Positions 24,241 through 56,953 of a DNA stretch of 64,000 nt are shown here, piece by piece (the stretch's first letter is position 1; each line of letters opens with the position of its first letter). Made by a program: the position numbers and the translations under genes. The notes beneath the pieces were generated by a model. The model was not told the DNA's origin, made no database searches, and saw nothing but the letters and a program-made list of their open reading frames with translations. The DNA comes from Magnetococcales bacterium (GTDB taxonomy: Bacteria > Pseudomonadota > Magnetococcia > Magnetococcales > DC0425bin3), in contig JADGCO010000001.1 in assembly GCA_015228935.1 (NCBI GenBank), positions 148,103-212,102 of the forward strand. Reading direction: 5' to 3'.

Positions 24241-25079
24241 AGTGTTTTGCCCCAGGGAATATTATGAATGTCCAACTGCTCAACAACAGTAGTGAACAGT
24301 GCAACTTCCATTCTTCTGCTTTTATCACCCATCGTATTCGCGTTTATGTCATCAAACGCTGAGTTTAAAAGACTTTCAAGCAGATTTTTCTCAATGCGAA
24401 CCTCTTCAATTTGCTCAGGAGTCAGGGAACCAACAAATATCACCTCTATATATTTCGTTTCTTTACAAACCAGTTCCGGCCAATCTTTTTGATCAATTTT
24501 TGCAATTTCTTCGTGATGTTTAAGGGCAGCAAGAGTGTGTCGCTGTTCCATGCTGGCCAGTTCCTGTTTAAATTTATCAAATATCAGAGTAGACTTCGCA
24601 TCCATATACCCAACCAAACTGTCTTCGGCAAGATAGATTGACAATATTTTTTCCCAATATTTTTCCTGCACCACGACGCAGTAATCTCCGTATTTTCTGG
24701 TTCCCTCACCTCCGATATTCAATAAACCATAATAAAATTTTTCCCCATCGACAAAAATTGACTCAAAATTCTTTCTTGGAAGATACCACTCACGCAGCTT
24801 TTCCTCCATCAATCTTTCCGGAGTTCTTCTGCCACGGATTGCGATCTGGTTTGCCCAATCATGAATATTTTTATACTTCTTGCTGAACAAAAAATCATTC
24901 AGCACATAGAGATGCATATTGATGGAAACCCGGGCTGTATTCTGGACATGATTCCGGAAACGACTCAAGAGTGTCGCATCGACTCCGGGAGTGGTCAGAA
25001 GGGTCTGATAACGACTTTCCAGGTCTGGGTCATTTTGTTGCGCCAAGGCAAAAATATCGAGTTTTGAGGAGAGGGACAC
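24237..25079 (-). CDS. Hypothetical protein (280 aa), first gene of the NACHT operon
   Basis: Complete ORF with a GTG start at 25079. This is the most AT-rich part of the window, so a 280-codon open frame is unlikely to be chance. No recognisable domain. Confidence 0.6.
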   Translation of the reverse strand: MSLSSKLDIFALAQQNDPDLESRYQTLLTTPGVDATLLSRFRNHVQNTARVSINMHLYVLNDFLFSKKYKNIHDWANQIAIRGRRTPERLMEEKLREWYLPRKNFESIFVDGEKFYYGLLNIGGEGTRKYGDYCVVVQEKYWEKILSIYLAEDSLVGYMDAKSTLIFDKFKQELASMEQRHTLAALKHHEEIAKIDQKDWPELVCKETKYIEVIFVGSLTPEQIEEVRIEKNLLESLLNSAFDDINANTMGDKSRRMEVALFTTVVEQLDIHNIPWGKTL

Positions 25080-25566
25080 CTGCTTGCATCCCTGATTGGA
25101 GTCACGATTCCGAAGGGATGAAATCCATGGTCAGCCTGTCTGAAATTTTGATTTCACTCATGCGGACGGCGGTTATTTTATCATGAATTGATCGTCCGTC
25201 AAGATTTTAATTTTCGTTTGTGTCCTATTTCCAGAATCCAATCGCGACGGAAGCATATTTGAATGCCAGCCCGCTGATTAAACTTTATGCAGTGTCCTGG
25301 TGTGGGGAAGTTGGGTGGAATCTCCAAAAGGCAGACAGCACTCGCTCCAATTAAATGGCATATTACTTGCTTGAACCATGGCATCGGGTCTGATCGGGTT
25401 GAATGTTTGCTGGGTCTCATCTAAGATAGTGAAGAGAGTTCATTTTACGAACTGTGTAGCCACCAGTGTGGAGAGTGAGTGAATATTATGATCAGGGGGG
25501 AATATCCATCAGCCCTGGCTGGCTTGGTCAGGATATTTCAGATCATGAATAGACACTCAAACCTAG

Positions 25567-27228
25567 ATGAATAGATACGCAAAAATCTGGATATGGTGCG
25601 GTTTTGGTCTGCTGGCGATGGCCTTACTGGTTGCTCTGGCCATGGTCAGCAACAATTTTCCGGCGTTCTCTTATCTTCACTACCTGGACATCATCGGACT
25701 GACAGGGGGGGCCATTTTCCTTCTGATTGGCTTGTTTCTCCAGGAAAAGAACACTCTGTCCCACCAGGAAATCAACAGGTTTTGTGATGATCTGACTGCG
25801 GCCTATATGCGTCTGGAGGCGCGATTGCAGGCAACCCGGTCACTCACCCTGAGCGTTCGGGATGCCATCGTCGCCTGCGATGAGCGTGGCATGATTAATT
25901 TTTGGAATCAAGGAGCGACCGCCCTGTTTCACCACGCCGAGCCGGAGGCCATGGGACGCTCCGTGGAAATCCTGATGCCGGAACGGTCTCGGGAAACGTA
26001 CCGGCAAAAATTCAAGCAAGTCAAAACCAACCCAAATTCCATGACCGGGGGGAAGATTCTCGATCTGACGGCTTTGCGCAAAGATGGCCAGGAAATTGAC
26101 ATTGAAATGTCCCTCGCCGGCTGGCGCACCGAGGGAGAACAATTTTTTGTCGCCGTCATCCGGGATATATCCCAACGCAAACATCACGAAGCCTCTTCCG
26201 AGCGCATCCAGCAATCCCGGGTGGCCATCAGCGAACTTCTGCGCATCGCCCTCGAACCCATTACCTTGAAAGAACAACTGCAACAAGCCATGAACGTCAT
26301 TCTCTCCGTTCCATGGCTGACCATCGAGTCCAAGGGATCCATTTTTCTGTTTGATGAAGAGAGCCAGGAACTGGAGTTGATCGTCGAACACAATCTTTCA
26401 AAACCATTGCTGACCGCCTGCGCCCGTTTGCCTCTGGGATATTGTCTTTGCGGTCGGGCCGCCCAGAGCAGGGAAATCGTATACTCCAATGATCTGGACC
26501 ATCGGCACGATGTCACCTTTGACGGGATTCGACCCCATGGTCATTACTGTGTTCCAATCCTTTCCCAGAATCGTCTGTTGGGTGTGGTCAACATGTACCT
26601 GACCCATAATCACATCCAGGATCCGGAAGAGACCGACTTTCTCTGGGCCATTGCCAATACCTTGGCCGGTGTCATTGAGCGCAAGAAAGCCGAAAACCTT
26701 CTGTCACACCTGGCCCATCACGATACCTTGACCGGCCTACCAAATCGCAAGCTCTTTCTCGAACGGCTTGATCATGACATGGCCCGTGCCAAACGCATGG
26801 AATCGCTCCTGGCAGTCATGTTTCTGGATCTGGATAAGTTCAAGGAAGTGAACGACACCATGGGACACGAAGTGGGCGATCAACTTCTCATCGAAGTGGC
26901 CAGGCGTCTGAAAAGCTGCCTGCGCGAATCCGACACCATTGCCCGTCTGGGCGGCGACGAATTTACCGTCATTCTGACTGTCCTTCCCAAACCGGAGGGA
27001 GCTGTCATCGTCGCCAAAAAAATCATTGCTGCCCTTGAAAAACCTTTTTATTTTCCAGATAAAGAGTGTCATATTGGCTCCAGCATCGGCGTCAGCTACA
27101 ACGATTGGCCCGATGATACCCCGGAATCTCTGCTCCATAAGGCCGATACCGCCATGTATGCCGTCAAGCGGGAGGGAAGAAACAATTTCAAGATTTTCGA
27201 TACCAGCATGGAAATTGCGGACAGATGA
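25567..27228 (+). CDS. Membrane-anchored PAS-GAF-GGDEF diguanylate cyclase
   Basis: 553 aa with two N-terminal TM helices and a PAS-like segment (RDAIVACDERGMINFWNQGATALF). A GAF-like segment follows, then a GGDEF domain with an intact RLGGDEF and the upstream HDTLTGLPNRK. Confidence 0.88.
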   Translation: MNRYAKIWIWCGFGLLAMALLVALAMVSNNFPAFSYLHYLDIIGLTGGAIFLLIGLFLQEKNTLSHQEINRFCDDLTAAYMRLEARLQATRSLTLSVRDAIVACDERGMINFWNQGATALFHHAEPEAMGRSVEILMPERSRETYRQKFKQVKTNPNSMTGGKILDLTALRKDGQEIDIEMSLAGWRTEGEQFFVAVIRDISQRKHHEASSERIQQSRVAISELLRIALEPITLKEQLQQAMNVILSVPWLTIESKGSIFLFDEESQELELIVEHNLSKPLLTACARLPLGYCLCGRAAQSREIVYSNDLDHRHDVTFDGIRPHGHYCVPILSQNRLLGVVNMYLTHNHIQDPEETDFLWAIANTLAGVIERKKAENLLSHLAHHDTLTGLPNRKLFLERLDHDMARAKRMESLLAVMFLDLDKFKEVNDTMGHEVGDQLLIEVARRLKSCLRESDTIARLGGDEFTVILTVLPKPEGAVIVAKKIIAALEKPFYFPDKECHIGSSIGVSYNDWPDDTPESLLHKADTAMYAVKREGRNNFKIFDTSMEIADR

Positions 27229-27285: not shown

Positions 27286-28986
27286 ATGAATCAATCCCAT
27301 ACCCCTCTTGCCATTGCCATCCAGCTTTTCGAGCATACCGTGGAAGGAATGCTGGTCATGGACGCGAGTGGCAAGGTTGTGTCCGTGAATTCCGGCTATA
27401 CAAACATTACCGGAGAGTCACGTGAGGCCTTGTTGGGCAATCCGGCCATTTTGTTTCGGGACCCGGACAAACTGGATCGTTCACCCCAATCCATCCTGGA
27501 TGAGGCCCGGGAAAGGGGACACTGGCATGGCGTCATCTGGAATCGGCGTGGCAATGGCGAGTCTTATCAGGAGTCCATGGTTGTCACGGCCATCCACGAT
27601 TCCAAAGGTGAAACAACACATTTTGTTGCCGTCTGCCTGGACATGTCCCTGACCGGACTGAACGCTGCCGAGTTGCGTCTGCGCTCCAACCATGACCATC
27701 TTACCGACCTGCCCAACAGGCTGCTCTTCACCGACCGTCTGGAACAAATCCTGGTTCATGCACAACGTTCCCGGGAAAATGTGGTTTTGTTGTTTTTTGC
27801 CCTGGACTCTTTCAAAAAAATCAATGAAAGCCTGGGGCACCAGACAGGGGATCTGGTTCTGAAACAGGTGGCGGGTCGCCTGCGCCAGATCATTCGCAGG
27901 GAAGACACCCTGGGACGTTTGAGTGGAGATGAATTTGCCATCATTTTTCGCAATGCCCGCCACACGGAGAGTGCCATCACCATTGCCCAGAAGGTGCAGG
28001 CATCGCTGGCCGAACCCCTCATGGTGTCAAACCATGAGCTTGCGGTAACCGCCAGTGTGGGATTGGCCGTTTTTCCCATGGATGGCGAAGATGCCGAGAC
28101 GTTGATTCGTCATGCCAATCTGGCGTTGGCCCGGGCCAAACAGGCTGGCAGAAATACCTTCATGTTTTTCACCTCCTCCATGGCAGCCCAGGCCACCAAG
28201 AGAATGATCCTGGAAAACAGTCTGCGCAAAGCCTTGGATAACGGTGAATTTATTGTTTATTATCAACCCAAGGTCCATGTCGCTACCGGTCTGGTGACCG
28301 GCATGGAGGCCTTGATTCGCTGGAACCAACCCGGCATGGGGATGGTGCCACCGGGGGATTTTATCGCCATAGCCGAAGAAAGTGGGCTGATCGTGCCCAT
28401 GGGACAATGGGTTCTGGAAACATCCTGCCGCCAGAGCAAATCCTGGATCGATGCCGGGTTGGGCCCGCTCCGGGTGGCAATCAACCTTTCCGCTCGTCAG
28501 TTTCAGGTTGGAAAACTGAACAATACGATCAAAAAAGTCCTGGATACGACAGGTCTTTCCCCAACTGACCTGGAACTCGAAATTACCGAAAGCCTCATGA
28601 TGGCCGACATCAAGGAATCCATCATCACCTTGCGGGAATTGAGTGACATGGGACTGAGTATTGCCGTGGACGATTTTGGTACCGGCTACTCTTCCCTTTC
28701 CTATCTGCGCCAGTTTCCGATCAACACCATCAAGATCGACCGCTCCTTCGTCTCCACCCTGACCTCGGAATCTGGCGATACACCGATTGTCCGCGCCATC
28801 CTCTCCATGGCCCAGAGCCTCAATCTGGCCAGTGTCGCCGAAGGGGTGGAAACTGTGGAACAGCTCCAGATCCTGACCGAACTGGGTTGTGATGAATACC
28901 AAGGATATTATTTCAGCCGACCATTGCCACCGGAAGAGTTCGCCGCACTGGTGACCCGCCTGCGTCAGGTTTCCGAAAAAGATTGA
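27286..28986 (+). CDS. PAS-GGDEF-EAL c-di-GMP signalling protein
   Basis: 566 aa. It has a PAS domain, a GGDEF domain with a variant SGDEF site (RLSGDEFAI), and an EAL domain (EALIRW, DDFGTGYSSLSYL, KIDRSF). Confidence 0.9.
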   Translation: MNQSHTPLAIAIQLFEHTVEGMLVMDASGKVVSVNSGYTNITGESREALLGNPAILFRDPDKLDRSPQSILDEARERGHWHGVIWNRRGNGESYQESMVVTAIHDSKGETTHFVAVCLDMSLTGLNAAELRLRSNHDHLTDLPNRLLFTDRLEQILVHAQRSRENVVLLFFALDSFKKINESLGHQTGDLVLKQVAGRLRQIIRREDTLGRLSGDEFAIIFRNARHTESAITIAQKVQASLAEPLMVSNHELAVTASVGLAVFPMDGEDAETLIRHANLALARAKQAGRNTFMFFTSSMAAQATKRMILENSLRKALDNGEFIVYYQPKVHVATGLVTGMEALIRWNQPGMGMVPPGDFIAIAEESGLIVPMGQWVLETSCRQSKSWIDAGLGPLRVAINLSARQFQVGKLNNTIKKVLDTTGLSPTDLELEITESLMMADIKESIITLRELSDMGLSIAVDDFGTGYSSLSYLRQFPINTIKIDRSFVSTLTSESGDTPIVRAILSMAQSLNLASVAEGVETVEQLQILTELGCDEYQGYYFSRPLPPEEFAALVTRLRQVSEKD

Positions 28987-32671: not shown

Positions 32672-34588
32672 TCAACTTTTCCAGTAGTAGCTCCGAATCT
32701 CTTTCACGGAGGGGATGCGCGTCAGGGCGTTCAAGACCCGCCCGAGGGTGTAGGGATCCTTGCCGCCCATCTCGATGGCGATGGTATAGACGGATCCTGA
32801 CCGCCCCTTGCTTTGAATGGAGTGGCCGTTGATGCCGTAACTCACCATGAGTTCGAGAACCGGCAGCAAGGCTCCTGTCTGATGGTCCAGGGTAAAGGTC
32901 ACATTGAGGGTTTCGGAGGCCGGAACCAGATTCCACCCCCCCTTTTCCCACAAGGGACCCTGGGCCTTGGGGCAATCGGCGCGATGCACGATCCATTGCC
33001 CATCCGCCGAGATGCGTCCCACAACGTCATTACCGGGCACCGCAATACAACAGGCCGACCATCGCAAATCCGGACCACTCAGGGAGGTCAACAAAAATCG
33101 TCCATCCGGACTCCGCTCCACGCCCCTGACCGGAATTTTCTGGTCTTTCAGGGCCTGCTTGATCATGGTGCGGGCACGGGCGGTTTTGACGACATCAATC
33201 CAGGCACGTTGGGGACGTGCCCCCTTGGCTGTCAAAACATGGACCACATCCCCATCGGCCAGGGGATGTTCAGGTGGACACTGGATGCCGTTGACCCGGG
33301 CACCGATACAATGTTGGCCCAGTTCCGTGTGGACCAGATAAGCAAAATCAATCACCACCGATCCCACCGGAAAGGTCAGTCGATCTCCCTTGGGAGAGTA
33401 GACGTCCAACAAGTCCGGCAGCACATGGGCATGCACCTCGGACATGCGCAGATCGCTGTCTCCCAGGGTGGCGAGAAGATTCATATAGCGGGTGGTGTCC
33501 GGCCCGCTTTTTCCCCAATTGGCCAAAATTCCCATCCGGTTGGACTCTTCGTCACGGGGATTGACGATATGGACCTTGAGGGGATGCCCTTCCCAGACCA
33601 CCCGGGTGGTCAGGGCACGGAAACCATTGATGCGCGGGGCATTGAGATAATCGCGAATGTGTCGCGGCAGAGGACCAAAAAAACTGTGGACCCGTCCCAG
33701 AACCCGCCAGGCCGTATCATCGTCGGGAACCAGGAGTTTCAGACGATACACCGGCCAGCCAACACGGACCAACTGACCCGTTCCGGGCTTTTCGGCCAGG
33801 TGAAAGTAGTCACCGATTTTTTTTTGTTCCAGGATGAAATCCATGGCCAAGTCATCGCCCATGACGGCAGGCAATTGACGTTTCAGGCGTTCCATGCTCT
33901 CGGCCCCTCTTTTCTGGAGGGTGAGCAGGGTACGTTTGGCCCGTTGGGTCTGGATGGGCATCAGATGGGGCAACAGCCGTTCGATCAAAAGATCTGCCAA
34001 GGCAATCATGCCCAGGCGCCGGGCCACCCCCACATAAATCAGTCCCAGGCTGGCCTTGATTTTGGCCTTGGCAGGACCGTGAACATGCAAGGTTTCCGAA
34101 TTGTGCAGCCAGTCGAAGGTCTTGACCACCAGGACCCGCAAATCCTTGGAGGCGGCCGCCATGATGCGCCGATAGGTGGCGGCCATATCGCCGGCCCCGG
34201 TTTGCAGATTGCGAATCTTGGAGAGGGAGCGCACCATGGTCGCCACGTCTTCGCAAAAACCGGCAATGCGGGTTTCGGCTTCCATGACGGGGGGGGCATC
34301 TTCGATGGCATCGTGCAACAGGGCGGCACAAATGGCCGTCACATCCGTCAAGCCCCATTCCAGACAATGATTTGCCACACTGATGACATGGGTCACGTAA
34401 GGGATGCCATCCAGCTTGCGAATTTGACCAGCATGAAACTCACAGGCCATCGTGGCTGCCATGGCCACCCGTTGGCTTCCCGGATCACCAATCCGTTCCC
34501 GGCACTGTGCAACCAATTCCGCAATCTGTTCTTCAACCTGGCGCATCGGCTTTCTTTTCAACAATCTTTCTGTCAAAATCCCTGACAA
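32672..34588 (-). CDS. Long RelA/SpoT homologue (HD hydrolase, degenerate synthetase, TGS, ACT)
   Basis: 638 aa. The HD domain is intact (GIPYVTHVISVA, ALLHDAIEDAP). The synthetase-like core reads RDYLNAPRINGFRALTTRV / KVHIVNPRDEESNRMGI. The TGS domain reads DVYSPKGDRLTFPVGSVVIDFAYLVHTELG. An ACT-like tail closes the protein. Confidence 0.8.
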   Translation of the reverse strand: MSGILTERLLKRKPMRQVEEQIAELVAQCRERIGDPGSQRVAMAATMACEFHAGQIRKLDGIPYVTHVISVANHCLEWGLTDVTAICAALLHDAIEDAPPVMEAETRIAGFCEDVATMVRSLSKIRNLQTGAGDMAATYRRIMAAASKDLRVLVVKTFDWLHNSETLHVHGPAKAKIKASLGLIYVGVARRLGMIALADLLIERLLPHLMPIQTQRAKRTLLTLQKRGAESMERLKRQLPAVMGDDLAMDFILEQKKIGDYFHLAEKPGTGQLVRVGWPVYRLKLLVPDDDTAWRVLGRVHSFFGPLPRHIRDYLNAPRINGFRALTTRVVWEGHPLKVHIVNPRDEESNRMGILANWGKSGPDTTRYMNLLATLGDSDLRMSEVHAHVLPDLLDVYSPKGDRLTFPVGSVVIDFAYLVHTELGQHCIGARVNGIQCPPEHPLADGDVVHVLTAKGARPQRAWIDVVKTARARTMIKQALKDQKIPVRGVERSPDGRFLLTSLSGPDLRWSACCIAVPGNDVVGRISADGQWIVHRADCPKAQGPLWEKGGWNLVPASETLNVTFTLDHQTGALLPVLELMVSYGINGHSIQSKGRSGSVYTIAIEMGGKDPYTLGRVLNALTRIPSVKEIRSYYWKS

Positions 34589-35415: not shown

Positions 35416-36333
35416 ATGGAGGGTTTTGCAAATTATTGTTTCCCGGTTTCCGGGGTACAGGTCGGATTGTGGTTGCCTCCACTGGTGGCTTTTGGCATTT
35501 CGTTTTTCACGTCCATGGTGGGAATTTCCGGGGCGGTGTTGTTGCTTCCCTTTCAGATGAGCGTTTTGCACTACACGACCCCGGGCGTGAGCGCCACCAA
35601 TCTGGTTTTCAACCTGATCGCCACCCCCAGCGGCATCTGGCGTTATGCCCGGGAGGGGCGACTGTTGTTGCCTCTGGTCGGCGTGATCACGGCTGGTACC
35701 TTGCCGGGAATATTTTTGGGATATCTCCTGCGGGTCCATTATCTGCCCGATCCCGCCCGTTTCAAACTTTTTGCCGGAGGGGTGTTGTTCTATCTTGCCT
35801 GGCGTCTGCTCGGTGAGAACAAAAACTCTGGCAACAGTCGGCTTCCGGCTGAAAATAAACCGGGAACATCTCAACCCGGCACGTCGGTCATCCACAGCGT
35901 ATTCACCTGGCGTCACCTGGCGTTCACCAGTCAGGGAACCGGATACCAGGTCTCTACGCCGGCCTTGTTTTTTCTGGCTTTGGTCGTCGGAACATTGGGC
36001 GGCACCTATGGCATTGGCGGCGGGGCCATCATCGCCCCTTTTTGTGTCACCTGGTTTCGCCTGCCCATCCGTCTGGTGGCCGGAGCCGCCCTGGCCGGAA
36101 CCTTGGCGACCTCCTGTTTTGGCGTGGCATTTTACAGTTTGATGCCAACCGGATCCACCGCATCAGTTCGTCCCGATTGGCTCCTGGGCATCCTGTTCGG
36201 ACTGGGTGGGGCCATCGGCATGTATGCCGGAGCTTCCGCCCAAAAATATTTTTCCCAGAACATGCTGCAAAATATTCTGGGTGTTTCTCTGCTGTTTTTG
36301 GCGGGATTTTACTGGTTGCAAGGGTTTTGGTGA
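35416..36333 (+). CDS. TauE/SafE-family anion exporter (DUF81)
   Basis: 305-aa polytopic membrane protein. FGISFFTSMVGISGAVLLLPFQ and GTLGGTYGIGGGAIIAPF are the two TauE half-repeats. Confidence 0.8.
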   Translation: MEGFANYCFPVSGVQVGLWLPPLVAFGISFFTSMVGISGAVLLLPFQMSVLHYTTPGVSATNLVFNLIATPSGIWRYAREGRLLLPLVGVITAGTLPGIFLGYLLRVHYLPDPARFKLFAGGVLFYLAWRLLGENKNSGNSRLPAENKPGTSQPGTSVIHSVFTWRHLAFTSQGTGYQVSTPALFFLALVVGTLGGTYGIGGGAIIAPFCVTWFRLPIRLVAGAALAGTLATSCFGVAFYSLMPTGSTASVRPDWLLGILFGLGGAIGMYAGASAQKYFSQNMLQNILGVSLLFLAGFYWLQGFW

Positions 36334-36347
36334 AATGCGGTACCTGT

Positions 36348-36408
36348 GGGGCAGGCCGTATGGATCCTGACCTCAACAGGGGCAGGCCGTATGGATCCTG
36401 ACCTCAAC
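36348..36408. repeat. 30-nt direct repeat x2 (period 31)
   Basis: GGGGCAGGCCGTATGGATCCTGACCTCAAC occurs at 36348-36377 and again at 36379-36408. It lies between convergent genes, and copy 2 overlaps the stop codon of the 36404-37357 gene. Confidence 0.9.
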
Positions 36409-37357
36409 GCGAGGGAAAGCGGAACAGCAGGGTACCGGAGACACTCTTGTGTTCGGCAAACCCTTTATTGAAGACGGCGATGGCTCCCCGAATCTCCCGG
36501 AGCGCGGTCAGATTTACATCGTCGCCATGACCAGTGTTCAATTTGCGGGAAAGTTCCAGATGCCAATGCCCGTCTTTCCACACGCCCCTGGCCGTCACAT
36601 CAGCCAGGCTGCCGGAAGGGTCCTTCAGCATCTGGATGCCAGGCAGCGTCTCTCCGTTCGGCTGCGCAGGCGCATCAAGATTGTCATAGATCGGCTTGCC
36701 AGCGTCGCGGATTTTGCGGATGTAAACCATCCCCCCTTCGGGATGCTCATACTCGGCGGCGTTCTCCTGCGGTGTGGCGGAGATGACATGCATGAAATCC
36801 TCGGCCAGACCAGCCGGATTGGTACGGCCTGCCGACCATTGCCAGAGGTCCACCCGATAGTCGTTCCGGGAGAGCATGCATTCGTCGTAGGTTCCCCCCA
36901 TGTCAAAGCGGACGACAAACATGTCGTCACGCAGTTTGCTGCGTTTGTACTGGGTTCCGCTCAACTTCCAGGGGCGATAGAGAGTACTGGCCTCCGGATC
37001 TGGCCAGCGGGCGGCAAAGAAGAAGCGTTCCCCGGCCACGCCGGCCTTGATGCGCACTTTCAGCACGCCGGTCACATTGTCTGCATCGTTCTCCTTGGCC
37101 GGCTTGATCTCGACATCTGTCCAGCCCGAATCCCCCCAATCTGCCAACTCCCCATCCACCTGGGGAAGCGCGGAGAGGGCAGGCACATCAACCGGGATGG
37201 GCGACGCGGCAGGAGGGGATGCCGCCCAGACGCACCCTGCCCACCCTGCGGCCCAAGACGCACCGCCAAGCAGCGCCAGAGCGGTCCGCGACCACAGGGT
37301 CCGACCGCCCGCGCCCGGCATCTGTCCTGATCGTGTCAACATCACGCCGTCACTCAA
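36404..37357 (-). CDS. Periplasmic EB_dh-like (ethylbenzene dehydrogenase gamma / NxrC-like) haem-binding domain protein
   Basis: 317 aa with a signal-like N-terminus. VDGELADWGDSGW...ERFFFAARWPDPEAS...DMFVVRFDMGG...RVDLWQWSAGRTNPAGLAEDFM matches the EB_dh / DOMON-like pattern as I recall it. Start is uncertain (M1, M6 or M13). Confidence 0.55.
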   Translation of the reverse strand: MSDGVMLTRSGQMPGAGGRTLWSRTALALLGGASWAAGWAGCVWAASPPAASPIPVDVPALSALPQVDGELADWGDSGWTDVEIKPAKENDADNVTGVLKVRIKAGVAGERFFFAARWPDPEASTLYRPWKLSGTQYKRSKLRDDMFVVRFDMGGTYDECMLSRNDYRVDLWQWSAGRTNPAGLAEDFMHVISATPQENAAEYEHPEGGMVYIRKIRDAGKPIYDNLDAPAQPNGETLPGIQMLKDPSGSLADVTARGVWKDGHWHLELSRKLNTGHGDDVNLTALREIRGAIAVFNKGFAEHKSVSGTLLFRFPSR

Positions 37358-37808
37358 TGGTTATCCGACCTTCCATGCCCTGTTTCTGGTGGTCGTCGAT
37401 GGTGCAGAAGACCGGATAGCTGCCTTTTTTCACTGCAACGAAATAGATATCCAACTGGCCCCCGACCATCAATTCCACGGCAAGCAGATAGGGGACCTTG
37501 ATTTCGCCGTCCTTGTCGGACTGCACCTTGCGGGTGGCAATCGACTTGTAGAACTCTGGCGCGGTGAAATAATGCTTTTTCTCACCCGCGTTCTTGAGGA
37601 TCAGTTGGTAGGTTTTGCCTTCCTTGAAGGTCAACTGCTTTGGAGAGTAGGAGTACTCATCCATGGTGACCGTTACCTTCTCGATGGCCTTCCAGTCTGC
37701 GGCCTTGACGATCTCTGCGCTGTTGACCACATAATCCTCGGCGGCTAACACATCCACACCCGTCATCAGGACCAACGTCAAGGCGATCCAACGCATCGGA
37801 TTTTTCAT
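37350..37808 (-). CDS. Secreted cupredoxin (type-1 copper protein)
   Basis: Track ORF trimmed to ATG 37808 (MKNPMRWIALTLVLMTGVDVLA signal peptide). Candidate Cu ligands are KKHYF ... FCTIDDHQKQGM (C-x4-H-x4-M). Confidence 0.7.
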   Translation of the reverse strand: MKNPMRWIALTLVLMTGVDVLAAEDYVVNSAEIVKAADWKAIEKVTVTMDEYSYSPKQLTFKEGKTYQLILKNAGEKKHYFTAPEFYKSIATRKVQSDKDGEIKVPYLLAVELMVGGQLDIYFVAVKKGSYPVFCTIDDHQKQGMEGRITIE

Positions 37809-38048
37809 CTGCACCTGCTCCCTTAGGCTCGTGTTGCGTCCGAAAGTCGTCTCAATAAACAGCCGGATTTTCAAAGAGACCATGCCTGTGGCCGACAATC
37901 CGCATTTTCCGGCGTGCATGGTGCGGCAAGGCATGACCATTGACGGATTATGCGATGGCTGACAGGTATTTGGCAAGAAAAATACCGCCGGTCATGGCGA
38001 CACTTCCACTCCCTGCGTCTTTCCGGAATTCTGGCCGACATTTTCGGC

Positions 38049-38954
38049 TCACCTGCCCCCCTCCCCGGGCAGCAGACGCGCCCGAAATGGACTGGTTATG
38101 AGCTTTTCCAGGCGGTAACCGGCGTTAAAGACCGCAAACTGCACGACACGCTCACCACCGACTTCCAGCACCACATCATTGGGATCCTTGGTCTTCAGCA
38201 AACGGGACATTTCGACGGTCCAGACCCCATCCTTCCATCGTCCCGCGGCGGTCACGTCCGCCCGGCTGCCGGAGGCCTCGCCAACCTTGACAATGCTTGG
38301 CACCACCGGCCCGGATTCCGGCTTGGGCGTCGGCTCGGTCTGCCAACCCGGAATCCCCTCATCCATGGCGTTTTGAAAATAGACCGTCCCCTTGTTCCCC
38401 TCGTATTCCCGCGCCGGTTTATCGAACGGCTTGTTGGAAAAGAGGTGCTGCATGTCGTCGGCAAAGCCGGACAGGTTGGAACGTCCGGCACTCCACCGCC
38501 AGACATCGGTTCGGTACTGGGTACTCGACAGCATGCACTGGCTGAACGACTCTCCCATCTGCCAGCGCACGACCAGCATGTCGTCCAGGGCACGGCTGCG
38601 TTGATATCCGTTCCCGGACAACTTCCAAGGCTTGTAAAGGGCATTCATGGTCTCATCCGACCATTGGGCGGCAAAATAGAGCCTCTCCCCATGATGGCCG
38701 AACCACACCCGCAATTTTTTTTCCTTTAACGGGGCATCCTTGCCTGTCGCCGCATCCACCTCCCACTCCGAGTCAGTCAGGGAAAGCAGGCGGCCCTCTC
38801 GCATCCCCTGCGCATTCCAATCCCCCAACTCTCCATCCACGACCACAGGGACGTTCAAAGGCATGACAGGCAGTTCATCATAAGGGGAATTCGCCCACCC
38901 AGTCGTTGCAACCAGCCCTGCAACCAGCCACCCGAACAGCAACGATCTACCCAT
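38049..38954 (-). CDS. Periplasmic EB_dh-like haem-binding domain protein (paralogue of 36404-37357)
   Basis: 301 aa with signal peptide MGRSLLFGWLVAGLVATTGWA. VDGELGDWNAQGM...ERLYFAAQWSDETMN...DMLVVRWQMGE...RTDVWRWSAGRSNLSGFADDM is colinear with the paralogue. Confidence 0.55.
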   Translation of the reverse strand: MGRSLLFGWLVAGLVATTGWANSPYDELPVMPLNVPVVVDGELGDWNAQGMREGRLLSLTDSEWEVDAATGKDAPLKEKKLRVWFGHHGERLYFAAQWSDETMNALYKPWKLSGNGYQRSRALDDMLVVRWQMGESFSQCMLSSTQYRTDVWRWSAGRSNLSGFADDMQHLFSNKPFDKPAREYEGNKGTVYFQNAMDEGIPGWQTEPTPKPESGPVVPSIVKVGEASGSRADVTAAGRWKDGVWTVEMSRLLKTKDPNDVVLEVGGERVVQFAVFNAGYRLEKLITSPFRARLLPGEGGR

Positions 38955-40045
38955 TACCGTTTATCCCTGTCCAGGTCTCCATCCTGACCTACCGGATCCA
39001 AATGCCCCAACGACCAGGAACGGCCTGGCACTGGACGATACAGCAGGATGTAGGTACGCCCCTTCAGGTTCAGTTGCGCCTCACCGCTCTCTCCCTGGCG
39101 CATCCTCACCGTAGCTTCCAGAAACCGTGGATCATTGCTGATCGAGGCAACGCCGAGCAGATAATCGGCCAACTTTTCCCGCATCGTAAAATCAGCCGCA
39201 TCCTCGTCGTCATGATGATCGGCAGCATCTCTGGTGCGCAATCCAGAGCGGATCTTCTGCCGGCTGTCGGCCAGCAACAGCCCATCCTTGTCAAGCAGGA
39301 AGTACTGCCCCTCCTCCTCCGAATCCAATTGAAACTTCCCAGACCCGGTCGAGTAACTGAAATCCTTGCTGGACAGGACTTTCTCATAGACATCGAGCGG
39401 GATTTCAAAATGGAAAAACGCTGGTTTATCGCCGTTCTCCAGAATGATCGGGATGGTATAGGCGATCACCCAGTGAAGCGAATCCGGAGACATGTAGGGG
39501 TCGCTGGTATGGATATTCCCCGGCAGGAGACGGAACGACGGTGCGAAAAAGGGGGAGTCCGACTCGCTGTTCGAAAAGAAATGGGCATCTTCCACCTTGC
39601 CATGCACGGTCCGCAAATGTTCCTGGCCCGTGCGGTCGATCAGGCAGACTTCACCGATGGGAAAGCGTTTGTTCAGGATCGTGGCCCACTCTTCCATCTT
39701 TTTGCGCAGCTTGACCTGACTGGGCGAAAAGGTTGGGACCCCCATCGCGTTCAGGGTGTTGGATCCTGACTCCGGCAAAGAAAAATATTCCTTAAAAACA
39801 GGCATCTCAACGGTGGTCAGCAGCGTGCTTTTCACCTCGTGGTGAAACATCTTGATGCGAAACAGCATCTGCTCGATCTGGGCTTCTGCCTGTTCTCTGG
39901 CAGCTTCCAGGCTCATCTGCGGCCTGGCATGCCCGGCTTGCGGCCAAGCCAGCACGCCTGCCAGAAAAAATACCATCAAGATCCATTTCCCATACATTCG
40001 CATCATCTTATCTTTCGTCAATGATGGATCCATGCAACTCTGCAA
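38954..40045 (-). CDS. Secreted Cache/PDC-like domain protein with no transmembrane or output module
   Basis: The likely start is the ATGATG at 40006 (MMRMYGKWILMVFFLAGVLAWPQAGHA signal). The segment EVCLIDRTGQEHLR...DPYMSPDSLHWVIAYTIPI...GQYFLLDKDGLLLADS has the Cache-type pattern. Its stop overlaps the next gene's ATG by 1 nt (TAATG). Confidence 0.5.
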   Translation of the reverse strand: MQSCMDPSLTKDKMMRMYGKWILMVFFLAGVLAWPQAGHARPQMSLEAAREQAEAQIEQMLFRIKMFHHEVKSTLLTTVEMPVFKEYFSLPESGSNTLNAMGVPTFSPSQVKLRKKMEEWATILNKRFPIGEVCLIDRTGQEHLRTVHGKVEDAHFFSNSESDSPFFAPSFRLLPGNIHTSDPYMSPDSLHWVIAYTIPIILENGDKPAFFHFEIPLDVYEKVLSSKDFSYSTGSGKFQLDSEEEGQYFLLDKDGLLLADSRQKIRSGLRTRDAADHHDDEDAADFTMREKLADYLLGVASISNDPRFLEATVRMRQGESGEAQLNLKGRTYILLYRPVPGRSWSLGHLDPVGQDGDLDRDKR

Positions 40046-40586
40046 TCACCAACTTTTCTTCCCGGGAAAGCCCTATATCCGTGCGAACGCTCCTGGCATG
40101 CTCCACCAGTTTGACCGCCAAAACAGAAAATTGTTTGTGAACGTGAATCCGTCGCAAACCTTCCCGGACACCCAGGACAACGGTACCAGTCTACCCATGA
40201 AGCGGCAAGGCCGCAACCAAACGGAAAAGTCGGCATGGGTGTTGCTGTAGGATTGTGTCGGCTATACCATCAAGGTGGCAACCCGCTTCAAGGGTGCCCT
40301 GGGGACATGGGCCCGGCAAGGCTGGAGAAACACCATCCCTGCTCCCGGTCATCCTGGTCACTCCTGTTGATCATTGGTGACGGATACCTTGATGATCCTT
40401 TGGAACTCCTGCAAAATCCCCGGGTACTCTCTCTTGTTCCCACAGGTGATGGGCATGGTACCGGGCCTGGACTCCATCTTATCCCGGTATTTTTCCGGCC
40501 TGGGGGATCCTGGTCATTGGCATTGGAGTGCTGATTATCAACGAAGTGTTTCATTGACGGTTGTTGCGGCAGGGAGATGTGCGTCC

Positions 40587-42287
40587 ATGATACGTTTTTT
40601 CTCGACCATTGGCGGCAGGATGTTGATCCTGGTAGGTGGGGTCATTCTGTTGAACGTAGTCACCATGGTCGCCTTTTATACCAAAAGTCAGGAGCAAAGC
40701 ATCCTGTCGCAAAACGAGGCCAATATGGGCAAGATGGCCGAAGCGGTTTCCCACGGCTTGCAGTCAGTCATGCTGGGCGGTTACGCGGATATTGCCCACG
40801 CCTACGCGGATGGCCTCAAGCGGGTGCGGGATGTGGAGGATTTCCGTATTCTCCGGATGGATGGCAACGAAGCCTTTCAGGACAATAAAACGATTCACGA
40901 TGTCAACACACGGATGGGGAGCGATGAATTCCAGCCACGAAAGGAGGAACGGGCAGTGCCGGTGTTGGCCAGGGATGACGCAAACCTCAAAAAGGTGTTG
41001 CAGGATAAAAAAACATCGATCTTGTATCATGGCGGCGACAATAAAGAAAAAAAATTGACCTTTCTGCTGCCGATTCTGGCGGAAAAGTCCTGCTACCGCT
41101 GCCATGGCAAAGAGAATCCTGTACGCGGAATATTGAAACTGACCACCTCGCTGGCATCGGTACACGAAGCGATCAGGGCCACCCGGATCCAGGCCACCAT
41201 GATCCTGGCTGCAAGCATTCTGGGAAGTCTTCTGGTGGTTGGTTTCCTGATCCGGTATTCACTGGTGCGGCCGATTGATCGGGTCACTTCGGCGATGGCA
41301 AAGGTTGCGCAGGGGGACTTTTCGCAGCAGGTTCCAGTCATGGGGATGCAAGAGTTGGAGAGGATGGCGAGCAGTTTCAATGTTATGACACGCGAGGTGC
41401 TGGAGGGCTATTCCCACCTGACCGAGGAACAAAACAAGCTGACCACGATCATCCTGTCGGCGCGAGAGGCAATTGTGGTGTCCAATGCCGCCGGGGTCGT
41501 GGTCATCGTCAACCCGGCTGCCGAACGGATCCTGGAAAAGTCGGATCGGGAATTGATTGAAGGCGGCTTCCTCGCCGTGGTGGATGACCCCGCCTATGTG
41601 CGCGCCTTTCTGGACAAGAACGGGGCAGACATGCCCGATACCCTGGTCTACAAGGATCGGATCCTCAATTTCTATGCGGCGACCATTCAAAACAAGCAGG
41701 GAGTTACCATCGGCAGTGCGGCCCTGATCCGTGACATTACCGAGGAGAAGCGCCTGGAAGAGGCGTTGCGTCTGATGTCCTACACCGACAAGCTGACCGG
41801 TCTATACAACCGGCGGCGGTTGGAGGAGTTATTGAGCGGTGAATATAACCGGGCGCGCCGGTACAGTTTATCCCTTTCGGTTTTGTTTTTCGATGTGGAT
41901 CATTTCAAAAAATTCAATGATACATATGGCCACGACATGGGTGACAAAGTGCTGGAGGTGATCGGACATGTCGCCAAAAGCCATTTCCGGACCATGGACT
42001 ATGCCTGTCGCTACGGCGGGGAAGAATTTTGCATCATTTTGCCCAACACCGACGAGGAGGGAGCCTTTTCTTCGGCGGATCGTTTCCGGGAACGGTTGGA
42101 GAATACGGATATCAGCGGGATGCGCGTAACGTGCAGCATCGGAGTGGCCACCTTTCCCGAAGCCGCTGGAGAAAAATGGGATGAATTTCTCAAGCTGGCG
42201 GACAATGCCCTGTACGAGGCCAAGCGTCAGGGACGGAACCGGGTGGTGCAGTGGCGTGCCGGCATGACCGGCAAGGGCGTGCAGTAA
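40587..42287 (+). CDS. Diguanylate cyclase with a periplasmic CxxCH (c-haem, Tll0287/DUF3365-like) sensor, HAMP, PAS and GGDEF domains
   Basis: Track ORF trimmed to ATG 40587, with GGGAGA 10 nt upstream. TM1 is followed by a periplasmic domain of about 175 aa. That domain ends LPILAEKSCYRCHGKENPVRGILKL (CYRCH = 41091-41105). TM2, HAMP and PAS follow, then GGDEF with an intact RYGGEEF. Confidence 0.8.
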   Translation: MIRFFSTIGGRMLILVGGVILLNVVTMVAFYTKSQEQSILSQNEANMGKMAEAVSHGLQSVMLGGYADIAHAYADGLKRVRDVEDFRILRMDGNEAFQDNKTIHDVNTRMGSDEFQPRKEERAVPVLARDDANLKKVLQDKKTSILYHGGDNKEKKLTFLLPILAEKSCYRCHGKENPVRGILKLTTSLASVHEAIRATRIQATMILAASILGSLLVVGFLIRYSLVRPIDRVTSAMAKVAQGDFSQQVPVMGMQELERMASSFNVMTREVLEGYSHLTEEQNKLTTIILSAREAIVVSNAAGVVVIVNPAAERILEKSDRELIEGGFLAVVDDPAYVRAFLDKNGADMPDTLVYKDRILNFYAATIQNKQGVTIGSAALIRDITEEKRLEEALRLMSYTDKLTGLYNRRRLEELLSGEYNRARRYSLSLSVLFFDVDHFKKFNDTYGHDMGDKVLEVIGHVAKSHFRTMDYACRYGGEEFCIILPNTDEEGAFSSADRFRERLENTDISGMRVTCSIGVATFPEAAGEKWDEFLKLADNALYEAKRQGRNRVVQWRAGMTGKGVQ

Positions 42288-49680: not shown

Positions 49681-50570
49681 GGCCTCGATTTCCCGGTGGT
49701 TTCAGGGAAGATGACACGACCGTTCATGCCTGAAATCAGTTCAGGAAACTGGCCATCCAGGCGGCCAATCACCTTGATGGATTGACTGACGGCCTCCACC
49801 TGGGGTATGGGGCGCACCACCCGGGCCGGATAATTTCGACCGGTTTCATCGATATGGACCGTCAACGGCGTCCCGGGAAGCAGGCGGGAGAGCCAGCGGG
49901 AGGGCACGATCATGGCCAGTTCCAGATCGGCATTGTTCAGGATTTCCAGCAGATGCTGTCCCTCCGTCATATATTGGAATGGCTGGGCCTGTAACGCAAT
50001 GACCTGTCCGGGAAAGGGAGCGCGCACAAGACAGCGGTCCACCATGATCTTCTGGGTGGTGACTTCAGCCGTGTTGCGGGCCAGTTCGGCCTGGTCCAGT
50101 TCAAGTTCCAACGGGGAGAGGGAACCCAGCTCCATCAGGCGCGTGTGTACTTCCACCCGTTTTTGGGCGGCATGGACCTCCGCCAGGGCTTTTTGCAGAC
50201 GGGTATGAAACAGGGTGCAATCAAATTCCACCAGCAGTCTACCCCGGGGAAAGGCCTCCCCTTCAGTCACGTGGATGCGCTGGATTTTGGCAGTGATCTC
50301 GGCACCGAGTACCGTGCGTTGCCGGGAGGTCAATTGTGCCCGAATCTCTTCGGTGCCCCGGTCAATTCCGTCGGAACCGGTCTCCACAGGGACCGGAATT
50401 TTTTCCCTGCTGCTGGTGACCGAAGGTGCAGACGGTGCCGACCAGACCGGAACAACCGGGGGCAGCAGCAGACAACACACCAGCCAGCCAAGACGCAGAC
50501 CACCCCGGACAGCCATGGTCTGGCCGGCGGGAGAGAGGAGATTTTTCCTGATGGATCGGGACATCATCAT
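49677..50570 (-). CDS. HlyD/membrane-fusion-family periplasmic adaptor
   Basis: 297 aa. An N-terminal anchor is followed by GAEITAKIQRIHVTEGEAFPRGRLLVEFD, a short coiled coil and VRAPFPGQVIAL. It overlaps the next gene by 4 nt. Confidence 0.75.
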   Translation of the reverse strand: MMMSRSIRKNLLSPAGQTMAVRGGLRLGWLVCCLLLPPVVPVWSAPSAPSVTSSREKIPVPVETGSDGIDRGTEEIRAQLTSRQRTVLGAEITAKIQRIHVTEGEAFPRGRLLVEFDCTLFHTRLQKALAEVHAAQKRVEVHTRLMELGSLSPLELELDQAELARNTAEVTTQKIMVDRCLVRAPFPGQVIALQAQPFQYMTEGQHLLEILNNADLELAMIVPSRWLSRLLPGTPLTVHIDETGRNYPARVVRPIPQVEAVSQSIKVIGRLDGQFPELISGMNGRVIFPETTGKSRP

Positions 50571-50577
50571 GGGCGTT

Positions 50578-52326
50578 TCAAGGTGGGTTGACCCCTTCTT
50601 GGACAGGCAGGGGCCTTGACGGATTGTTCAGGGTAGCGGATTGGTTCGCTGGAGGAAAGGTGGGCGATGGGATATCCAGAATGAATGTCTCCGGTTCATG
50701 CCGTGGGGTTGCCTGGATGCGTTCCATGGACTTTTGCAGGAGTTTGCGGACCCGTTCGATCAGATCAGCCCGGGAATTGGGCACTGTCGTGGGTTCAGGA
50801 CCGGGAACCTGTATCAGGGCTTTTTCCCATTCAGTCAGATTTTTTTCAATGTTTTCACTCAGGGATTTCAGATCATTGTCGGTGGTGTTCATGGCAACCG
50901 GATCGGCTCCCACGGCCACCTGAAGTTGACCCAGGGCATTTTCCAGTTGAGCAAGAGCTTGATTTTGTTGCAGGCGGGTCAAAACGGCTTTGACCTTGTT
51001 GCGGATTTGTTCCAGGCGGTTTTCGGCGGCGTTGTTTTGTTGCGTGGTCACATGGTGCAGGATTGCCTGGTCGATGGTGCTGAGATCCATGGTCCGGCGA
51101 TACTGTTGCAAGGCGGTGAGATATTGCCGCCAGGCAATATGGGTTTGACTCAAAATGGCCATGTGCAGGGCCAGGCGACGGGTTTCGGTCACCGCTTCCT
51201 GTGATCTGGCCCATTGCAACCGCCAGGGGGCCGTGGCCAGATTGATCAGGTTCCAGGAGATGCGCAAGCCCGCTTCCGCCCAGCTCTGGTTGACCAGAAA
51301 GGTATTGCTTTCATAATTGCCGGTCAGGCTCATTTCCAGGCCGGGAAAGAGGCGGGCGATGGCTTTGCGGGTCTCCTCGCTGCTGATACGGGCCTGATAA
51401 TTTTCTTCACGCAACTCCGGGCGGTTGCGCAGAGCCAGTCGTTCCAGGGCGGCCAGGGGCATGTCAGAGGGGAACGCGGTCAGGGGGGGTTCAGTGGCGG
51501 CCAGTTTGAAGGTTTTTCCCGGTGGCACGTTCATCAAGGGAGACAACTCGATGCGGGCCATGGCCATGTCGTCACGCAATTTTTCCAACTGCACCACAAT
51601 TTCCAGAATCGAACGTCGATAGCGCAATATCTCCAGAGGGGGACGCAGACGTTCCTGGGCGATTTGCTCCAGGGCAACACGGGCCTCTTCGGCCTGTTGC
51701 AAGGCATCGGTAATCTCTTGGGCCAGGTTTTGTGCCCCCCAGGCACGCCAGAAGGCGTAACGAATTTCCCGGGTCAGGTTTTGAATCACCTTGCGCCGCC
51801 GCTCTTCGGTGATCAGCAACCGGTCCGCCTCCTGGCGTGCCCGGAAATAGCTGACGCCAAAATCCAGGACATTCCAGGTCATGGAGAGGTCGATCTGTTC
51901 ATGATCCCGATTCTGCGAGGTCGAGGACTCAAGGGAAATGCTGCCACTCTGGACCGATTGGCTGCTGGAAGCCGCCGCATTGGAGCGGCTCGTATAGCCC
52001 GCCGAAGCCAGCAACCCGGGCAGCAGCTCCGCCCGGGTCAGGTCCAGTTGATTTCTGGAAAGCATCTCTTCCATCAACTTCAGACGGTGATCAAGATTGA
52101 AGCTGATGGCCCGGGCCATGGCATCATAGATGGTCACGGTTTCCGGGAGGGGGGGCTGGTTTTCGAACATTTTAAGCTCATCGGCCTCGACGAGCCGGGC
52201 CTGCTCTGCCTCGGTCAAGGCCTGCGGTTTGACAATACAGCCAGCCGGCAGGATCAGAAGGAGTATCCAGCCCAACAGATACAGCGACAGGGAAGTGGCA
52301 GATTTGCAGGCAGACATCTTCGCCAA
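50578..52326 (-). CDS. TolC-family outer-membrane efflux lipoprotein with a Pro-rich C-terminal extension
   Basis: 582 aa with lipobox LILPAGC and two OEP-type helical repeats. The track start is TTG 52326; ATG 52317 is the alternative. Confidence 0.75.
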   Translation of the reverse strand: MAKMSACKSATSLSLYLLGWILLLILPAGCIVKPQALTEAEQARLVEADELKMFENQPPLPETVTIYDAMARAISFNLDHRLKLMEEMLSRNQLDLTRAELLPGLLASAGYTSRSNAAASSSQSVQSGSISLESSTSQNRDHEQIDLSMTWNVLDFGVSYFRARQEADRLLITEERRRKVIQNLTREIRYAFWRAWGAQNLAQEITDALQQAEEARVALEQIAQERLRPPLEILRYRRSILEIVVQLEKLRDDMAMARIELSPLMNVPPGKTFKLAATEPPLTAFPSDMPLAALERLALRNRPELREENYQARISSEETRKAIARLFPGLEMSLTGNYESNTFLVNQSWAEAGLRISWNLINLATAPWRLQWARSQEAVTETRRLALHMAILSQTHIAWRQYLTALQQYRRTMDLSTIDQAILHHVTTQQNNAAENRLEQIRNKVKAVLTRLQQNQALAQLENALGQLQVAVGADPVAMNTTDNDLKSLSENIEKNLTEWEKALIQVPGPEPTTVPNSRADLIERVRKLLQKSMERIQATPRHEPETFILDIPSPTFPPANQSATLNNPSRPLPVQEGVNPP

Positions 52327-52501
52327 TCAATTGACAAGGTGGCCAGACAGTCGCAACTTGAGAACCTCTGTAAAATCAGGTCCTCAGCCCAGGGCGTCCG
52401 GAATGCTGCCTTTGACATGCAGCTTCTGTTCATATCCTGGTGTTGCCCGCCATCTTGAGACTACGCAAATTTTCTGCCAATTATCCGGATGTTTTCATGT
52501 G

Positions 52502-53284: not shown

Positions 53285-53310
53285 GGTGTCAAAAACTTCC
53301 TGGGATCATG

Positions 53311-53771: not shown

Positions 53772-53825
53772 GGGAATATCATAACACCGAAAATGCGAAT
53801 CATGTCAAAGCAAGATGTGTCGTCA

Positions 53826-56917: not shown

Positions 56918-56953
56918 GAAAACCGTTATGCCAAACCGGAATGGACCAACCGG

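Follow-up and report, generated by a model that had tools for sequence, protein, structure and literature searches.

In a 64,000-nucleotide stretch of a Magnetococcales genome (contig JADGCO010000001.1; hereafter the window), positions 36404-42287 hold two gene pairs on the minus strand and a divergently transcribed receptor gene on the plus strand. One pair encodes a stand-alone dCache protein and the EB_dh protein EB_dh-1, the other a cupredoxin and a second EB_dh protein, EB_dh-2, while the receptor is a diguanylate cyclase with a haem-c Cache sensor. Comparison of related loci shows that this haem-c sensor domain is the constant partner of the cupredoxin/EB_dh-2 pair and that the cytoplasmic output attached to it is interchangeable. 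The conserved partner of the pair is thus the receptor and not the molybdoenzyme, resembling nitrite oxidoreductase (NXR), that is encoded 20 kb away in a separate and self-sufficient operon. We propose that 36404-42287 is a periplasmic sensing island rather than a respiratory appendix of the NXR-like enzyme, and that the cupredoxin and EB_dh-2 would relay electrons between the haem c of the receptor and a periplasmic electron pool; for this reading as a whole we put the chances at about even. The features discussed are the following:

38954-40045, minus strand: stand-alone dCache periplasmic protein, 363 aa (open reading frame, AlphaFold2 fold)
38049-38954, minus strand: EB_dh-1, secreted EB_dh/DOMON-type protein, putative Met/Lys haem-b protein, 301 aa (PF09459)
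37809-38048, minus strand: 240-nt intergenic gap, probable transcription-unit boundary (hairpin and promoter-like consensus matches)
37350-37808, minus strand: secreted cupredoxin of a single domain, with the ligands of a type-1 (blue) copper site, 152 aa (Cupredoxin_1)
36404-37357, minus strand: EB_dh-2, secreted EB_dh/DOMON-type protein, putative Met161/Lys304 haem-b protein, 317 aa (PF09459)
40584-42287, plus strand: receptor with a first transmembrane segment, haem-c Cache sensor, second transmembrane segment, HAMP, PAS and GGDEF (Pfam, hydropathy), divergent to the pairs
41091-41105, plus strand: CYRCH, the CXXCH motif for attachment of haem c in the receptor's periplasmic sensor (alignment)
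60560-64000, plus strand: molybdopterin alpha subunit of NXR or nitrate reductase (NAR) type, exported by the twin-arginine translocation (Tat) pathway, outside the module (match to 7b04_B)

A constant sensor beside the cupredoxin/EB_dh-2 pair

Related loci were collected by a scan of one genome per species, and every window protein was compared with all of them by tblastn. The scan yielded 37 related loci from Magnetococcales, Motiliproteus, Sedimenticola, Rubrivivax, Rhodocyclales, Janthinobacterium, Rhodospirillaceae and other proteobacterial metagenome-assembled genomes (MAGs), a spread that takes in the Magnetococcales and the Gamma-, Beta- and Alphaproteobacteria. A cupredoxin orthologue lies directly upstream of the EB_dh-2-type gene at 30 of the 34 loci with enough upstream sequence. 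Of the 25 loci where at least 3 kb are available on both sides, 21 have, no more than 4 kb from the pair, a receptor whose sensor domain is that of the window receptor (33-51% identity). The Mcp40H-20_sensor domain (PF21563; E ≤ 0.01, best 1.7e-10) and HAMP were detected in all 27 partner receptors and the Tll0287-like domain (PF11845) in nine, while the outputs are PAS-GGDEF in 21 and the MCPsignal domain of methyl-accepting chemotaxis proteins (MCPs) in six. Because all 27 partners share sensor and HAMP while their outputs vary, it is the sensor and not the output that is constant, as would be predicted for a pair that works on the sensor domain. We consider it probable that pair and receptor are functionally coupled. 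The TauE/SafE gene immediately downstream of the module (35416-36333) found no match in the related loci by tblastn, and so is not conserved with it.

The receptor of the window is matched by the Pfam models for GGDEF (1.6e-47) and HAMP (1.2e-10), and its open reading frame can be extended to 40374. In the output domain the active site reads GGEEF and the I-site RxxD (sequence RTMDYACRYGGEEF), and hydropathy places the sensor domain between transmembrane segments. Against PF21563 the sensor scores 24.7-25.1 bits for a cutoff of 27. Cys170, Cys173 and His174 of its CYRCH motif are invariant in the alignment of the 27 partner receptors, and this CXXCH lines up with the motif that binds haem in two haem-c MCP sensors of Geobacter, 3B47 and 3B42. 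By these matches, the window sensor would represent a distinct subfamily that belongs to, or adjoins, the sCache_heme family.

A variant arrangement was seen in betaproteobacterial MAG sequence (L025:813-4383 and L029:10001-13573), where the genes come in the order EB_dh, a divergent cupredoxin (30-32% identity), an MCP-type sCache_heme receptor and a second cupredoxin (44-45% identity).

Gene pairs, folds and cofactor sites

The four minus-strand reading frames had originally been predicted to form a single operon of exported proteins lacking membrane anchors. All four are present, all four N-termini resemble Sec signal peptides, and beyond these a hydropathy scan detected no transmembrane segment in either EB_dh protein or in the dCache protein. 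The operon structure itself probably needs revision. The dCache and EB_dh-1 genes meet in a TAATG junction with one base in common at 38954. The cupredoxin starts at an ATG preceded by an AAGGGAG ribosome-binding site, from which 152 aa are read. Its 8-nt overlap with EB_dh-2 (37350-37357) holds if EB_dh-2 starts at TTG and becomes a 7-nt spacer if it starts at the ATG used in the database (P0001, 312 aa); the two genes are tightly coupled under either start codon. Between the pairs lie the 240 nt of the intergenic gap, with a terminator-like hairpin followed by a T-run at 38002-37986 and the region's top sigma-70-like match, 10 of 12 positions, at 37976-37947, both of them consensus matches only. 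These signals agree with the comparative evidence for two separate gene pairs, and the cluster is two independent conserved pairs side by side. Among Magnetococcus and Magnetococcales MAG entries, window proteins are matched by P0001 and P0101 at 100% identity and by P0221 at 99%, P0001 (from a Magnetococcales MAG) being the counterpart of EB_dh-2.

The cupredoxin assignment is sound: the protein scores 37 bits with Cupredoxin_1 (cutoff 27) and 23.5 bits with Copper-bind (cutoff 21.2), and it has the full predicted type-1 copper ligand set. His79, Cys135 and His140 are kept in all 38 orthologues and Met145 in 34 of the 38, and the C-terminal loop, C-x4-H-x4-M, has azurin-like spacing. Identity with CopI was considered and rejected, the weak N-terminal similarity amounting to 31 bits for a cutoff of 280.

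Hidden Markov model searches likewise bear out the assignment of both proteins of about 300 aa to EB_dh. EB_dh-1 and EB_dh-2, which are 40% identical, score 70.3 and 77.5 bits with PF09459 (cutoff 33.3), and the domain is present in every one of 100 relatives returned by a homology search with EB_dh-2. The orphan-type family is sizeable: in 50%-identity clusters a profile search found 242 representatives at E ≤ 1e-30, a number that rises to 1156 at E ≤ 1e-10 and to 2268 at E ≤ 0.001. When the AlphaFold2 model of EB_dh-2 (mean predicted local distance difference test, pLDDT, 84.9) was compared with known structures by Foldseek, the best match was the ethylbenzene dehydrogenase gamma subunit EbdC (2ivf_C; E = 9.8e-9, TM-score TMt 0.67), followed by NXR-C of Kuenenia (7b04_C; 1e-7), both ahead of CBM9 structures at E = 5e-5 to 1e-3.

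The alignment to EbdC that had been suggested as a check on the haem ligands finds both of them conserved. In EbdC numbering, set by alignment, the ligands are Met108, the M of TMGATGRPVN, and Lys201, the K of AERSGRKSYSG. Lys304 of EB_dh-2, the lysine of AEHKS, is aligned to Lys201 in the family profile alignment. Met161, within a CM(L/F)S motif, is aligned to the Met of FSPRM in Kuenenia NXR-C, which pairs in turn with EbdC Met108 through the alignment of the genuine NXR-like gamma subunit of this organism. EB_dh-1 has a Met aligned to the same FSPRM residue, and its Lys is present in RLEK. Over 102 members of the family, Met occupies its position in 95, and the second position is filled in 99 of 102 by Lys (86) or His (13). 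On these grounds the two proteins are plausible haem-b proteins. Immediately before the putative Met ligand of EB_dh-2 stands Cys160 (about 36878-36880, minus strand), which 72 of the 102 members keep and which never varies in the close clade. A second cysteine that might partner it is not conserved, and Cys160 could serve as a redox-sensitive thiol or an alternative ligand.

The type of neighbour tracks the phylogeny of the EB_dh proteins. In a neighbour-joining tree without bootstrap, the cupredoxin-linked proteins group in a single large clade, with the dCache-linked proteins, EB_dh-1 among them, branching outside it; the branch of the genuine NXR gamma is very long. The exception is L004, where an EB_dh-2-type gene lies between dCache receptors. 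About one-third of the best 150 profile matches are longer proteins of 400-1300 aa, with EB_dh at the C-terminus or in up to eight repeated stretches. These proteins (P0262, P0268, P0284, P0324 and about 45 more) are secreted, their N-terminal regions are blank in Pfam, and some of them also match CBM9_1 or 3-keto-disaccharide hydrolase.

A distant EB_dh clade, comprising a Thiothrix protein (L002:10001-15335) and P0086-P0098, has His in place of the Lys ligand and, in some members, Trp or Lys in place of Met, so that haem ligation is possibly different there. Downstream of the Thiothrix gene come genes for two hybrid histidine kinases and an Hpt protein, a further association of EB_dh with signalling.

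The product of the first gene of the dCache/EB_dh-1 pair had been described as Cache-like. Its Pfam score with dCache_1 is below the cutoff (29.1 versus 45 bits), the match being confined to the membrane-proximal part; the assignment is borne out at the level of fold, because the AlphaFold2 model (pLDDT 87.9; predicted TM-score, pTM, 0.81) matches only dCache ligand-binding domains among the best 50 of 156 Foldseek matches in the Protein Data Bank at E ≤ 0.001. These include PscC (6mni; E = 1.3e-10, TMt 0.73), 3li9, Mlp24, TlpQ and 2p7j. The double-Cache fold consists of a long N-terminal helix and two PAS-like modules, and it usually lies between the two transmembrane helices of a receptor that has a cytoplasmic output. 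What makes the 363-aa protein unusual is that it stands alone, ending after the second module with neither a second transmembrane helix nor an output domain. Its family comprises 26 homologues, mostly from Magnetococcales and of 330-381 aa save for one 631-aa histidine-kinase fusion, and about half of the members have a precomputed PF02743 match.

The dCache/EB_dh-1 pair recurs in L043, L044, L045, L047 and L048; the gene order of L047 is that of the window, and in L048, a Pseudomonadales MAG, the two genes are split by a transposase. Homologous dCache domains also occur fused into larger proteins, diguanylate cyclases or MCPs. In L004 they are the N-terminal sensors in two proteins that flank the EB_dh gene, one with HAMP-PAS-GGDEF and the other an MCP, and in L009 and L012 such a domain heads a protein of about 1000 aa adjoining an sCache_heme diguanylate cyclase. 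In the Magnetococcales MAG that carries L047 (L047:1-9832), the pair comes right after a type I secretion set consisting of a 1157-aa protein, OEP, an ABC transporter and an HlyD-like protein.

A possible relay to the receptor haem and its alternatives

Because cofactor ligands and folds are conserved, the cupredoxin and EB_dh-2 look like one-electron carriers without a catalytic site. A relay is inferred because this carrier-type pair stays with the sensor domain whatever the output, GGDEF or chemoreceptor. The core unit would then be the haem-c Cache diguanylate cyclase, the blue-copper cupredoxin and the Met/Lys haem-b EB_dh/DOMON protein, the last two forming a short periplasmic relay between the haem c of the receptor and a periplasmic high-potential electron pool. 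This specific mechanism is tentative, and we rate it somewhat short of an even chance. In one form, the relay would report the redox state of the pool to the receptor and so provide periplasmic energy or redox sensing. In another, it would return the receptor haem to a ligand-competent state, the ligand probably being nitric oxide (NO). The output would be cyclic di-GMP (c-di-GMP) synthesis in the window organism and chemotaxis in Motiliproteus and Sedimenticola. Proteobacteria living in gradients could in this manner make c-di-GMP signalling and chemotaxis respond to the electron pool, or could keep their sensors competent for NO in an oxic periplasm.

Signalling-type sCache_heme domains bind NO tightly when ferrous, form no stable oxy-complex and autoxidize rapidly in air, and stand-alone members of the family behave as redox proteins (2026 preprint, PMC12889525). 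The rapid autoxidation would give a dedicated redox partner a plausible job. In its strongest form, the proposal is that the pair is a dedicated "sensor redox wire" that establishes or restores the oxidation state of the haem c in sCache_heme receptors, and with it a previously undescribed class of receptor accessory that has a dCache-linked paralogue; so stated, it is possible and yet doubtful. The dCache protein and EB_dh-1 would on this proposal be a paralogous accessory unit beside the cupredoxin/EB_dh-2 system.

Several observations weigh against an electron relay to the receptor. No nearby receptor was found at four of the 25 well-flanked loci, L014, L028 and L035 among them, and the dCache/EB_dh-1 pair of L047 has no adjacent transducer. 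The Magnetococcales are rich in signalling genes, so that some of the adjacency could be incidental there, an objection countered by its conservation outside the Magnetococcales as well. The long EB_dh fusion proteins contain no signalling domain detectable with Pfam and essentially no CXXCH; they give no Rosetta-stone support for a link between EB_dh and signalling, and say nothing about it in either direction. By analogy with EbdC, NXR-C and blue copper proteins, the potentials of the accessory proteins should be high, and those of the Geobacter sensor haems are low, which makes both the direction and the feasibility of electron transfer uncertain. Finally, haem b and copper loading is predicted from the ligands, and the interaction between pair and receptor is itself presumptive.

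The strongest competing explanation, which we consider unlikely, is that the cupredoxin and EB_dh-2 constitute an autonomous periplasmic electron chain for some respiratory or metal-handling purpose, with Fe(II), Cu(I) or a different high-potential couple as examples, and that the receptor merely regulates or co-senses it. Carrier-type cofactor sites in both proteins would suit such a chain, as would the loci at which the pair occurs without a receptor, the cytochrome c and cytochrome-c maturation genes lying less than 10 kb away at several loci, and the weak N-terminal similarity of the cupredoxin to CopI. Against it, the pair has no conserved oxidoreductase, membrane quinol-interacting protein or outer-membrane conduit at its side; its sole conserved neighbour, whatever the output, is the receptor with the haem-c sensor.

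Alternatively, the EB_dh proteins could be co-sensors that bind a ligand or haem, in the manner of HbpS with SenS or of a binding protein acting on a chemoreceptor, the signal being free haem, iron or a small molecule. Such a role would fit the pairing of EB_dh genes with two types of sensor, sCache_heme and dCache, and with hybrid kinases; the stand-alone dCache partner points to small-ligand binding, and the Cys beside the Met ligand in most of the family might permit ligand switching. It is nevertheless hard to see, without electron transfer, why they should be so strictly co-inherited with a type-1 copper protein, and an EbdC-like six-coordinate Met/Lys haem is a carrier-type site. We judge this explanation to be quite improbable.

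The NXR-like operon and other features of the window

The electron shuttle or sensing module of the original prediction was meant to serve the molybdoenzyme whose Tat-exported alpha subunit starts at 60560. That subunit is present, with the motif SRRRFLQ and an open reading frame beginning at 60494 or 60560; it matches NXR-A of Kuenenia (7b04_B) at E = 7e-256, and its gene runs past the end of the window. An identical alpha protein, P0101, is encoded in a sister assembly (L046), the DNA of which is 98.7% identical over window positions 50567-64000, and through it the genes beyond 64000 could be inspected for beta, gamma and chaperone subunits. All three were found: the operon (L046:10001-16352) runs alpha, beta (Fer4_11, 375 aa), EB_dh gamma (311 aa) and a Nitrate_red_del (NarJ-type) chaperone. 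For the gamma subunit the E-value is 6.6e-19 with Kuenenia NXR-C and 4.6e-14 with EbdC; the two orphan EB_dh proteins reach only 0.12 and 0.18. In one global alignment, EB_dh-2 is about 21% identical to this genuine gamma. The orphans score 30.7 and 24.8 bits with TIGR03477 (cutoff 169.85) and 20.4 and 15.7 bits with the EbdC equivalog model (cutoff 400). No NxrA was found within 10 kb at any of the 37 related loci, and the 20 kb between the module and the operon are filled with unrelated genes on both strands, encoding a Fic protein, efflux functions, a phosphoenolpyruvate-utilising enzyme and the HEC-01 pair described below.

Because the molybdoenzyme locus carries its own gamma subunit as well as its own chaperone, the proposal that the orphan EB_dh proteins and the cupredoxin act as alternative gamma subunits, shuttles or a sensing module for this enzyme has become very improbable. 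The cluster does sit in a sensing context, as had been suggested, beside the haem-c receptor. What speaks for a link is that the orphans share fold and Met/Lys ligands with genuine gamma subunits, and that NXR-like alpha subunits occur in broadly the same proteobacterial groups. Interaction in trans is also conceivable from precedent, since Nitrospina and Nitrospira have several unlinked NxrC-like paralogues, together with cupredoxins inside their NXR clusters (PMC3578206). Against a link stand the distance of EB_dh-2 from the genuine gamma, the scores of both orphans far under the TIGR03477 cutoff and the absence of NxrA within 10 kb at the related loci. In addition, among the longest contigs listed for other Magnetococcales MAGs, those with NxrA relatives and those with orphan EB_dh relatives are of different lengths, the source contig excepted. 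Least probable of all is a role of the EB_dh domains as CBM9/DOMON modules that lack haem and either bind carbohydrate or are structural: CBM9 does appear among the fold matches and, with 3-keto-disaccharide hydrolase, in some long family members, but EbdC and NXR-C, which are haem-b subunits, are nearest in fold, both haem ligands are kept, and glycan-active genes are absent from the neighbourhoods.

The operon is a complete one of the periplasmic NXR/NAR type in a magnetotactic coccus, and its enzyme may work as a nitrate reductase or as a nitrite oxidase. More than 2000 relatives were found at E ≤ 1e-50, the closest (72-82% identity) in MAGs of Magnetococcales and of Beta-, Gamma-, Alpha- and Deltaproteobacteria. 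No report linking nitrite oxidoreductase with the Magnetococcales was found among the literature searched.

Directly upstream of the operon, at 57884-59961 on the plus strand, an AAA_21 ATPase and a DUF4276 protein match the PADLOC candidate anti-phage system HEC-01 (HEC-01A, E = 2.4e-155; HEC-01B, 3.3e-68). A 1481-aa protein at 19184-23629 (minus strand) combines a ParA/MinD-like N-terminus, a metallophosphatase, a NACHT/NPHP3 NTPase and a C-terminal FGE-sulfatase domain in an unusual architecture resembling that of NLR (nucleotide-binding leucine-rich repeat) proteins, with weak PADLOC matches to PDC-M28B and PDC-S60. The 638-aa HD_4 and TGS protein at 32672-34588 (minus strand) has no match to the RelA_SpoT synthetase domain and may be a hydrolase-only SpoT-like enzyme. 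At 24001-26000 the G+C content falls to 0.458, compared with 0.55-0.59 elsewhere, a dip situated just upstream of two further c-di-GMP genes (PAS-GAF-GGDEF, 25567-27228; PAS-GGDEF-EAL, 27286-28986).

Relation to known systems

The closest structural relatives of the orphan EB_dh proteins are the gamma subunits of type II enzymes of the dimethyl sulfoxide (DMSO) reductase family, such as EbdC (2IVF chain C), NXR-C (7B04 chain C) and SerC/ClrC/DdhC, with which they have in common the Pfam domain, the fold, Sec-type export, a soluble periplasmic state and the Met/Lys positions. They differ from these subunits in their low TIGR03477 scores and in the low identity of EB_dh-2 to the gamma of its own genome. 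Unlike the type II subunits, they are never encoded with alpha and beta subunits or a NarJ/TorD chaperone; the gene beside theirs is one for a cupredoxin or dCache protein, signalling receptors adjoin, and they form a clade of their own (the 242 representatives at E ≤ 1e-30).

Functional parallels exist in systems where what a membrane receptor senses is conditioned by a separately encoded protein outside the cytoplasm, as in HbpS-SenS-SenR of Streptomyces reticuli, LuxP-LuxQ and TorT-TorS; HbpS is itself a haem protein. A dedicated redox partner is known from soluble guanylate cyclase, whose NO-sensor haem is kept ferrous by CYB5R3. The likeness would lie in function, there being no relation in sequence or fold to the window proteins, and the window differs in having two redox proteins, one predicted to hold copper and one haem b, and a receptor with a covalent haem c. 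The combination of a DOMON haem-b domain with a copper centre is likewise known, in the cytochrome domain of cellobiose dehydrogenase that donates to lytic polysaccharide monooxygenase, in dopamine beta-hydroxylase and in CYBDOM proteins. With these the window shares the pairing of a DOMON-superfamily haem-b domain and a copper protein and, on the present proposal, electron transfer between proteins. Those systems, however, feed a catalytic copper, whereas the copper protein of the window appears to be a simple type-1 carrier and its third partner is a sensor.

On the side of the receptor, the comparison is with sCache_heme proteins (DUF3365/Tll0287 and Mcp40H-20), among them Geobacter GSU0582 and GSU0935 and the Cache_heme-HAMP protein of Pseudomonas azotoformans. 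The partner receptor shares with them the CXXCH Cache sensor, two transmembrane helices and HAMP, and the receptors that accompany the pair have the same kinds of output, GGDEF and MCP. Published accounts treat sCache_heme sensors by themselves or together with a Ser/Thr kinase of the cytoplasm (PMC12889525; bioRxiv 10.64898/2026.05.25.727664), and neither of these two preprints mentions cupredoxin, azurin or DOMON/EB_dh neighbours. No description of the triad of cupredoxin, EB_dh protein and haem-c receptor was found in the titles and abstracts of the literature searched, although an earlier mention elsewhere is possible. Every domain involved is thus already known, and what is new is their combination in what would be periplasmic sensing assisted by accessory proteins.

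Orphan EB_dh genes are routinely called NxrC or gamma candidates in the annotation of nitrogen-cycle genes, and the existence of a sizeable clade unlinked to molybdoenzymes urges caution in this practice. The coupling proposed here is open to direct testing in cultured carriers (Rubrivivax, Sedimenticola, Motiliproteus). If it is true, haem-c Cache receptors would have dedicated copper and haem-b redox partners, which would explain how the redox state of the sensor is held or reported. These partners would constitute a new type of accessory in bacterial signalling, acting on the biofilm and motility decisions of microaerophilic gradient-seekers, including the magnetotactic cocci.

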